Shown here piece by piece: positions 13,005 through 13,617 of a stretch of 64,000 bases of DNA. Origin of the DNA: Schmidtea polychroa (taxonomy: Eukaryota). Numbering within the stretch: position 1 is the first letter of the stretch; each line of letters opens with the position of its first letter. Where the stretch lies: NCBI GenBank assembly GCA_044892525.1, contig CM097887.1, forward strand, positions 115,546,397 to 115,610,396, read 5' to 3'. Under the pieces are notes generated by a model. The model was not told where the DNA came from, searched no databases, and saw only the letters and a program-made list of their open reading frames with translations. The position numbers were made by a program, and so were the translations under genes.

Positions 13005-13046
13005 ATAGTACTGATGAGAGCGAAAAGCTCGAAACTAGTCTACTAT
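13005..13046 (+). ncRNA. Minimal type I hammerhead ribozyme (Penelope/retrozyme type)
   Basis: Stem I ATAGTA(13005-10)/TACTAT(13041-46); core CTGATGA (13011-17); stem II GAGC-GAAAA-GCTC; GAAA; palindromic stem III ACTAGT; GUC triplet with predicted cleavage after 13040. Confidence 0.9.
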
Positions 13047-13617
13047 TGGGATTTGCCTGGATATCATAAAGCTTGTAAAGTTTATATTAAAATAATATAG
13101 AAATTTCAGGAAATATGCTTTCAAAAGATAGGAATAAAGATCAAAATTGCCACATTTATAAAAATGTTTAAATCACGAATATAAATAGTTATTGGAAGCT
13201 TTATTTTATAAATATCTTAAAATTCTTTTTATTAAAATAGGCTTCTATGGGCTAATTATAGAAGCTTTAAAAATTTTAAGATTTTGGTTGATGTTTCATT
13301 TTGAATTTTAGAGGATATTTAATTTTAATTTTAAATAAAAATTTTTAAAAATTCTTCAGAAAAAGAAAGTAAATAATGATATATTATATATTTTTAAACA
13401 ATGAGAAGAAAAATGAAATAAAAGAAAAATCGAGATGTATGTTCGGGAATGCTAAATTCCAGGAGATTGACAAGAACTATCTTACAGTCGAAAATTTTTT
13501 CATTAAATACATTATTCGCATCAAAAGGCTTAAATTATCACTTTATTGTTTTATACAAATTAAATATGTTCATAAATAAAATTACTATTTATTACTATTT
13601 ATTTTTATAATACTGAT

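Follow-up and report, generated by a model that had tools for sequence, protein, structure and literature searches.

The window (the whole stretch of DNA analysed, 64,000 nt in length) is AT-rich, mostly 22–38% GC, and holds host sequence and mobile elements alongside the small structured RNA that concerns us here (Table 1). Its multi-exon reticulon gene marks the source as a eukaryote with spliceosomal introns, most likely an animal. Three exons of the reticulon gene are 79–93% identical to one protein, and its reticulon exon has two close relatives. The Ser/Asn-rich open frame, which matched no Pfam family, drew no homologue from 3348 candidates and had no Atlas match either, is probably a large host exon, and the 5.8S rRNA fragment, perhaps flatworm-like and accompanied by no 18S or 28S match in the window, is probably an orphan pseudogene. 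Mobile elements of hAT, Tc1-like and LTR type were recognized in Pfam scans of the whole window (16 + 139 ORFs, mostly chosen out of 266 ORFs of at least 52 aa). The first-pass annotation described the transposable elements around the ribozyme as decayed; this holds for the nearest ones but not for the uninterrupted hAT transposase frame, whose matches span many animals and which lies directly beside a broken LTR-type pol region (20365–22895). Three GC-richer open frames at 46455–47072, 58609–59088 and 59289–59702 (minus strand), coiled-coil-like with basic ends and no Pfam family, are possibly ORFs of an unrecognized mobile element. A minisatellite at 51875–52343, made of ten 47-nt copies with a 90% match, is devoid of a hammerhead core.

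Table 1. Features of the window, with strand and the evidence used to place them
Feature	Position	Strand	Evidence or remark
Weak direct repeat, doubtful	12875–12908 vs 13052–13080, about 177 nt apart	+	Flank comparison
U1 snRNA 5′-end match, positions 1–13; splice-site-pairing arm and start of helix H	12965–12977	+	Rfam RF00003
Open symmetric exon, 84 nt (rival reading)	12973–13056	−	Acceptor 13057/13056, consensus donor 12973/12972
GAAA-tetraloop hairpin, 10 bp	12975–12998	+	Folding; a shortened U1 stem-loop I in the Rfam alignment
Hammerhead domain including stem I extension	12999–13051	+	Descriptor scan, folding
Hammerhead proper	13005–13046	+	Type I descriptor, Rfam, folding; cut predicted after C13040
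Weak features AUUUG and GCCUGG	13051–13060	+	Sequence, MFE folds
Tc1/IS630-like DDE_3 relic, C-terminal third of transposase	13606–13971	+	Pfam, relatives' profile
Ser/Asn-rich open frame, 397 aa	15476–16669	−	ORF
Uninterrupted hAT transposase ORF, 623 aa	23055–24926	−	Pfam; best match 75% identical over 99% of length
Reticulon gene, at least 5 exons, one intron of ~4.5 kb	about 37100–45160	−	Pfam, exon comparison
Isolated 5.8S rRNA fragment, AT-rich flanks	54229–54336	−	Rfam 49.2 bits, above gathering

The DDE_3 relic lies 560 nt downstream of the ribozyme and lacks the first two thirds of the transposase. We considered whether the ribozyme could be part of this relic and rejected the idea: a profile built from 51 of 150 relatives (those of 290–420 aa) matches over its positions 218–340 of 340 alone and finds nothing flanking the ribozyme, and there are no terminal inverted repeats. 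Inspection by eye further picked out frameshifted fragments at 10040–10792 (minus strand) that resemble a BED-finger hAT transposase, with no Pfam transposase family, and an imperfect inverted pair (14349–14372 and 15152–15175, ~800 nt apart) resembling the two termini of a small DNA transposon of the non-autonomous sort. None of the 91 ORFs of at least 28 aa between 9900 and 15500 belongs to an RT or GIY-YIG family (a survey that heavily decayed remnants could escape), the nearest RT, of LTR type, is 8.7 kb away, and array searches of the 64-kb window returned neither another ribozyme copy nor a tandem hammerhead partner, all of which bears out the earlier impression of a ribozyme with no adjacent RT frame and no tandem partner.

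Anatomy and class of the hammerhead domain

An intact hammerhead core (CUGAUGA, GAAA, GUC), a 6-bp stem I extendable past a C bulge, a 4-bp G-C-closed stem II and a stem III formed by the palindrome ACUAGU had been reported at this site by the first-pass annotation, and we find every base that was named, confirming a type I hammerhead on the plus strand. Stem I comprises six Watson–Crick pairs (13005–13010/13041–13046) and is prolonged past the bulged C13004 by five more, two of them G-U (12999–13003/13047–13051). The CUGAUGA segment (13011–13017) leads into stem II (13018–13021/13027–13030; 4 bp with G10.1–C11.1 and a 5-nt loop), beyond which lie GAAA (13031–13034), the palindrome (13034–13039) and the cleavage triplet, whose last base is C13040. 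The core has the form expected of the hammerhead class (CUGANGA, GAAA and NUH at a junction of three helices, helix I being the open one), and the established consensus of that class predicts self-cleavage after C13040. Predicted loop 1 is a lone C bulge; U13047–G13048 come after helix I, and the last base of loop 2 is an A. Presumably these bases could form a reverse-Hoogsteen contact between loops 1 and 2 if the G-U extension opens.

A type I descriptor run over both strands of the whole window has this motif as its single match (one of ten core-motif matches forms the stems), and in 400 windows of block-wise dinucleotide shuffles the strict descriptor matched 0 times and a loose one four times. 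The Rfam search that had been proposed as a check gave nothing at gathering level for the motif: the best hammerhead model, HH9, reached 19.4 bits where its gathering score is 52 (E 0.07 in one search, 0.013 in another), in an alignment where helix III of the model is longer than that of the motif.

Class assignment follows the definitions in passages of Cervera and de la Pena (PMC4209133), who call an HHR "canonical" when helix I has 6 bp, helix II 4 bp and helix III 1–2 bp with a 2–4 nt palindromic loop, and whose min-HHRs of Penelope-like elements (PLEs) typically have a helix II that is longer, a helix I that is shorter and one nucleotide added between 9 and 10.1. The motif at 13005–13046, with its 6-bp helix I, 4-bp helix II and palindromic helix III of 1–2 bp, is a canonical metazoan type I hammerhead and has none of the three PLE traits (there is no extra nucleotide); the label "minimal" that it had been given is wrong under that definition. 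The ribozyme is ordinary in kind.

Whether such a short helix III calls for a partner molecule was examined by energy computation. The double hammerhead was computed at −30.2 kcal/mol, two monomers at −29.0 and the best dimer fold at −31.2, and the best fold of the monomer mispairs core bases, lying 2.1 kcal/mol below the open-core fold. The double-hammerhead fold is thus energetically reachable, making dimer cleavage plausible, not forced. The earlier statement that the element must dimerize is too strong, since axolotl HHR monomers with a helix III of 1–2 bp were 6% and 22% cleaved in one hour, their dimers performing much better (passages of PMC7229834). What survives of the earlier classification, on anatomy and literature, is the kinship with Penelope elements and retrozymes and the preference for dimers; the PLE min-HHR architecture does not.

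A U1-like head and hairpin in front of the ribozyme

Directly upstream of the ribozyme lie two features that the first-pass annotation had overlooked, a match to the 5′ end of U1 snRNA and a hairpin, and together they change what the element is. The extent originally given, 13005–13050, is too small for the full structured RNA, which spans 12965–13051 and starts 40 nt upstream of stem I. Its first 13 nucleotides are identical (13/13) to consensus positions 1–13 of RF00003, beginning at model position 1, and occur in one copy within the window. The match is 3′-truncated and scores 12.3 bits (E 0.069, from a search limited to a 35-nt stretch that we picked), far below the gathering score of 69.5. 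The 5′ arm so defined is complementary to a 5′ splice site, as in U1.

The GAAA-tetraloop hairpin overlaps the end of the U1 match and runs straight into the stem I extension, which starts at 12999. Its inner seven pairs are predicted with P 0.96–1.0, and it is more stable on the plus strand (−14.3 kcal/mol) than on the minus strand (−11.8), two G-U pairs forming solely on the former. Aligned to the Rfam U1 model, the hairpin region scores 9.9 bits (E 0.37). Of the 31 hairpins picked up when the window was scanned in 24-nt steps of sequence with a filter, it ranks third in strength. The two stronger ones lie at 59491 and 32659 (plus strand), at −17.8 and −16.2 kcal/mol.

The predicted accessibility of the arm depends on where the RNA ends. 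With an RNA of 12965–13052, U1 nt 1–10 are unpaired (P 0.97–1.0); extension past 13060 leaves U1 nt 8–9 mostly paired (P unpaired about 0.1–0.3), and with 14 more bases beyond the core a closing helix partly occupies U1 nt 8–13. The partner in this closing helix of the MFE folds is GCCUGG, which can pair with U1 nt 8–13 and repeats the CCTGG of 12972–12976. In the 76-nt cleavage product, arm nt 2–5 are predicted to be just 34–65% unpaired. The arm is predicted to pair with all four of the donor-like sites of the window that were tested, at −5.6 to −12.1 kcal/mol.

Beyond this 5′ end the resemblance to U1 fades. The AUUUG at 13051, which we take to be a partial likeness of the U1 Sm site, stands after the last stem, roughly where U1 has that site; the Sm pattern has no full match before 13280, and the Sm site with stem-loop IV that marks U1 is lacking in the element. 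Loop I and loop II motifs were likewise absent near the element, leaving stem-loops I–III with their U1-70K/U1A loops unrepresented. No U1 remainder lies on either side, and insertion into an intact U1 gene was rejected for that reason. Without a full Sm site, U1 loops or U1 remainder the element cannot form a normal U1 snRNP; judged from its sequence, it is not a full U1.

The U1 match, hairpin and hammerhead behave as a unit in folding models, which show one contiguous structured RNA of 87 nt on the plus strand: 12965–13051 has a folding z of −4.0, with none of 300 shuffles as stable, and the flanks are ordinary (49/300 and 70/300). In 400 shuffled windows the U1 11-mer turned up 15 times, which gives ~3e-5 for a same-strand start no more than 100 nt upstream. 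For the 13-mer beside the ribozyme we estimate a chance of 2e-6 to 1.5e-5, a rough value that allows for real splice donors through assumed factors and holds unless the minus-strand exon of Table 1 belongs to the element itself; overall, the chance adjacency of U1 match and hammerhead comes to about 1e-5. The U1-like head, and not the ribozyme, is the finding, limited by its single copy, its 13-nt match and the splice-site reading considered below.

Origin of the 87-nt unit

Our leading reading, with a probability of roughly 0.45, makes the locus a solo copy of a non-autonomous retroelement unit of the Sm-alpha, newt satellite 2 or non-LTR retrozyme kind, built as a promoter and then a hammerhead, into which the beginning of a U1 snRNA gene was captured. 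The exact start of the match at U1 model position 1 and the low chance expectations for both 11-mer and 13-mer argue for this reading, as do the succession, seen also in U1, of a single-stranded arm and then a helix at once (from nt 11–12) and the preference of both hairpin and hammerhead for the plus strand. The hammerhead architecture fits the canonical metazoan type I ribozymes of retrozymes, each half of the unit has a precedent (Sm-alpha, newt satellite 2 and SINEU, discussed below), and solo retrozyme monomers are common according to passages of bioRxiv 10.64898/2026.07.22.740005. Against it stand the shortness of the U1 match, far below the Rfam threshold, the fact that the same letters make a perfect splice donor on the opposite strand, and a locus that displays neither a further copy nor a tandem partner, lacks a poly(A) tail (no A-run of at least 5 before 13160) and has no clear target-site duplication beyond the 5-nt CCTGG at both ends (12972–12976 and 13056–13060).

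The flanks, the putative circle and the lack of a demonstrable promoter element also weigh against it. The weak direct repeat is marginal, being equalled in 8 of 300 shuffles when 200 × 200 nt are compared and in 26 of 300 for 300 × 300 nt; it may mark a monomer of ~177 nt, a little over unit length, with ~90 nt upstream of the U1 start. At 500 × 500 nt a different, AT-rich alignment emerges (12566 vs 13083, 1/300 shuffles), which we tentatively take as a composition effect. A putative circle of 175–177 nt, its ends uncertain, folds with z −3.5 to −4.2 and 58–59% of bases paired, all of the signal coming from the 87-nt core; in these models it is not rod-like, unlike typical retrozyme circles. 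Upstream of 12965 no promoter element is demonstrable, and the window contains no snRNA gene for promoter comparison. A match to the 3′-box pattern at 13080 was dropped, the pattern standing at chance level in the window (6 matches vs 9.5 expected). A pattern scan for relatives in prokaryotic genomes gave eight matches, 0/8 with both hammerhead stems, and blastn against phages and plasmids reached a best E of 0.06, with the AT-rich flank alone involved among the matches listed, as expected for an animal element.

If the U1-head retroelement reading is right, RNA polymerase II would initiate at A12965, driven by an upstream promoter of snRNA type that came with the U1 head. A pair of transcripts would join through ACUAGU, thereby building stem III, and would be cut after C13040 to give a capped 76-nt RNA with the U1 arm and a 2′,3′-cyclic phosphate, and a downstream RNA with a 5′-OH; the two products may stay loosely paired via stem I (−7.9 kcal/mol). 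Where copies elsewhere stand in tandem, each cut-to-cut monomer would hold the promoter and the head close to its 3′ end; RtcB would circularize it and a Penelope-type RT would copy it. With the promoter inside the monomer, the location of snRNA promoters outside the transcript would no longer be a problem. The locus by itself would cleave slowly and would not spread autonomously. Transcription, cleavage, circularization and Penelope-driven copying are proposed here by analogy with what passages on Sm-alpha (PMC6765202), newt satellite 2 (PMC2220036) and animal retrozymes (PMC7229834; bioRxiv 10.64898/2026.07.22.740005) describe.

Read in reverse complement, a U1 arm is by nature a splice donor, and the foremost alternative, unlikely as we hold it to be, exploits this: the ribozyme would be an ordinary solo type I hammerhead (a retrozyme or PLE relic), and the "U1 head" no more than a strong 5′ splice site seen from the opposite strand, where it closes an exon of 84 nt, whether cryptic, exonized or element-borne. 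A full consensus donor and a YAG acceptor do stand on the minus strand, the open phase-0 frame covers the GC-rich island almost exactly, and the donor 9-mer recurs once in the window, at 43721 (minus strand), inside the reticulon gene span. U1 nt 12–13, however, match too, and these lie outside the donor consensus; of 829 random end points, 76 likewise allow an open symmetric exon with an acceptor; for the 28-aa peptide there is neither a Pfam family nor a usable Atlas match (0.75); no minus-strand host gene was found to take up the exon; and the plus-strand GAAA hairpin is left unexplained. PLE terminal repeats do carry spliceosomal introns beside the hammerhead, but those described in passages of PMC4209133 sit on the hammerhead's own strand.

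Behind the exon, and improbable to our minds, we place a domesticated self-cleaving U1-variant small RNA gene that kept the arm to pair with 5′ splice sites and replaced stem-loops I–III with the GAAA hairpin and the hammerhead. The ribozyme in it would generate the 3′ end or serve as a concentration-dependent dimer switch, with donor pairing in the absence of U1-70K, U1A and a normal Sm ring, a mode of action to which we give the same low credence. The structure is confined to a stretch starting at U1 +1, the arm is complete with its four predicted pairings, the AUUUG follows the last stem at roughly the U1 Sm position, and no sign of mobility was found at the locus; the missing Sm site, loop motifs and U1 remainder speak against such a gene, as does the partial pairing of arm nt 2–5 in the 76-nt product. 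Least probable of all, we consider, is a dead chimeric retrocopy, a single event that left neither promoter nor function, made by a template switch from hammerhead RNA onto U1 snRNA in the course of reverse transcription or by insertion into a U1 gene at CCTGG. The single copy in the window and the CCTGG on both sides of the insert speak for it, and template switching to U1 has been proposed for SINEU (passages of PMC4494074); yet no U1 sequence follows the second CCTGG, and the hairpin incorporates U1 nt 11–16, suggestive of selection once the fusion had formed.

Animal genomes commonly contain solo type I hammerheads, and the surprise lies in the fusion to an exact U1 5′ end. In the literature searched (mostly titles and abstract starts, few subscription journals) there was no natural U1–hammerhead fusion; snRNA–hammerhead hybrids may have been described before, and the novelty of the fusion is provisional. 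Were the unit one of a mobile family, it would show how a retrozyme gains a strong promoter though snRNA promoters lie outside the transcript; were it a domesticated RNA, we would be dealing with a variant spliceosomal RNA that bears a ribozyme and can pair with splice donors. Passages of PMC4494074 call SINEU transcription an open question, and on a unit of 87 nt a related question is easily tested.

Comparison with known systems

U1 snRNA itself (RF00003) shares with the element identical positions 1–13 and a single-stranded arm followed by a helix; the element differs in having no loop I, no stem-loops II, III or IV and no full Sm site (12.3 vs 69.5 bits). An engineered construct has its ribozyme placed in front of U1 (passages of PMC8216277). 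PLE min-HHRs have in common with the locus the type I topology, the palindromic 15.2/16.2 region and the dimer model (passages of PMC4209133), and differ in having an RT–GIY-YIG ORF beside the terminal repeat, where none of the 91 ORFs surveyed near the locus ribozyme is of that kind.

U1 pieces have been repeatedly added to the 5′ ends of retroposons, as in SINEU (Kojima 2015; passages of PMC4494074), which resembles the unit in the U1-derived 5′ end of a non-autonomous retroposon. SINEU is, however, crocodilian only, poly(A)-tailed and Tx1-mobilized; of its marks (U1/U2 head, poly(A) tail, dispersed family) the locus has the head and lacks the tail, and the word hammerhead is absent from the text of the SINEU paper.

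Among hammerhead elements, the non-LTR retrozymes of animal genomes offer the same type I ribozyme with a 6-bp helix I, a 4-bp helix II and a palindromic helix III of 1–2 bp, and the possible unit of ~177 nt falls within their 150–450 range. Theirs are tandem arrays of 150–450 bp units and highly self-paired circles, whereas the window holds one hammerhead and no array, and the putative circle, its ends uncertain, does not look highly self-paired; the passages of PMC7229834 examined mention no U1 head, "snRNA" appearing once, in a reference. Newt satellite 2 likewise combines a weak palindromic helix III with dimer cleavage (passages of PMC2220036 and PMC7229834). It uses an snRNA-type Pol II promoter (cited in PMC2220036), where ours is inferred, and it is a tandem satellite of about 330 bp for which the passages mention no transcribed U1.

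A parallel in order of parts is the SINE-like Sm-alpha of Schistosoma, which consists of a promoter and then a hammerhead (passages of PMC6765202) and thus shares with the locus a small-RNA-type head followed by the ribozyme, an order that would place the promoter at the 3′ end of the cut monomer. The promoter of Sm-alpha is of Pol III type, whereas a U1-like head at 12965 implies an upstream Pol II snRNA promoter. The unit that we favor would differ from the Sm-alpha and retrozyme kind in that a U1 head replaces the tRNA-type head.
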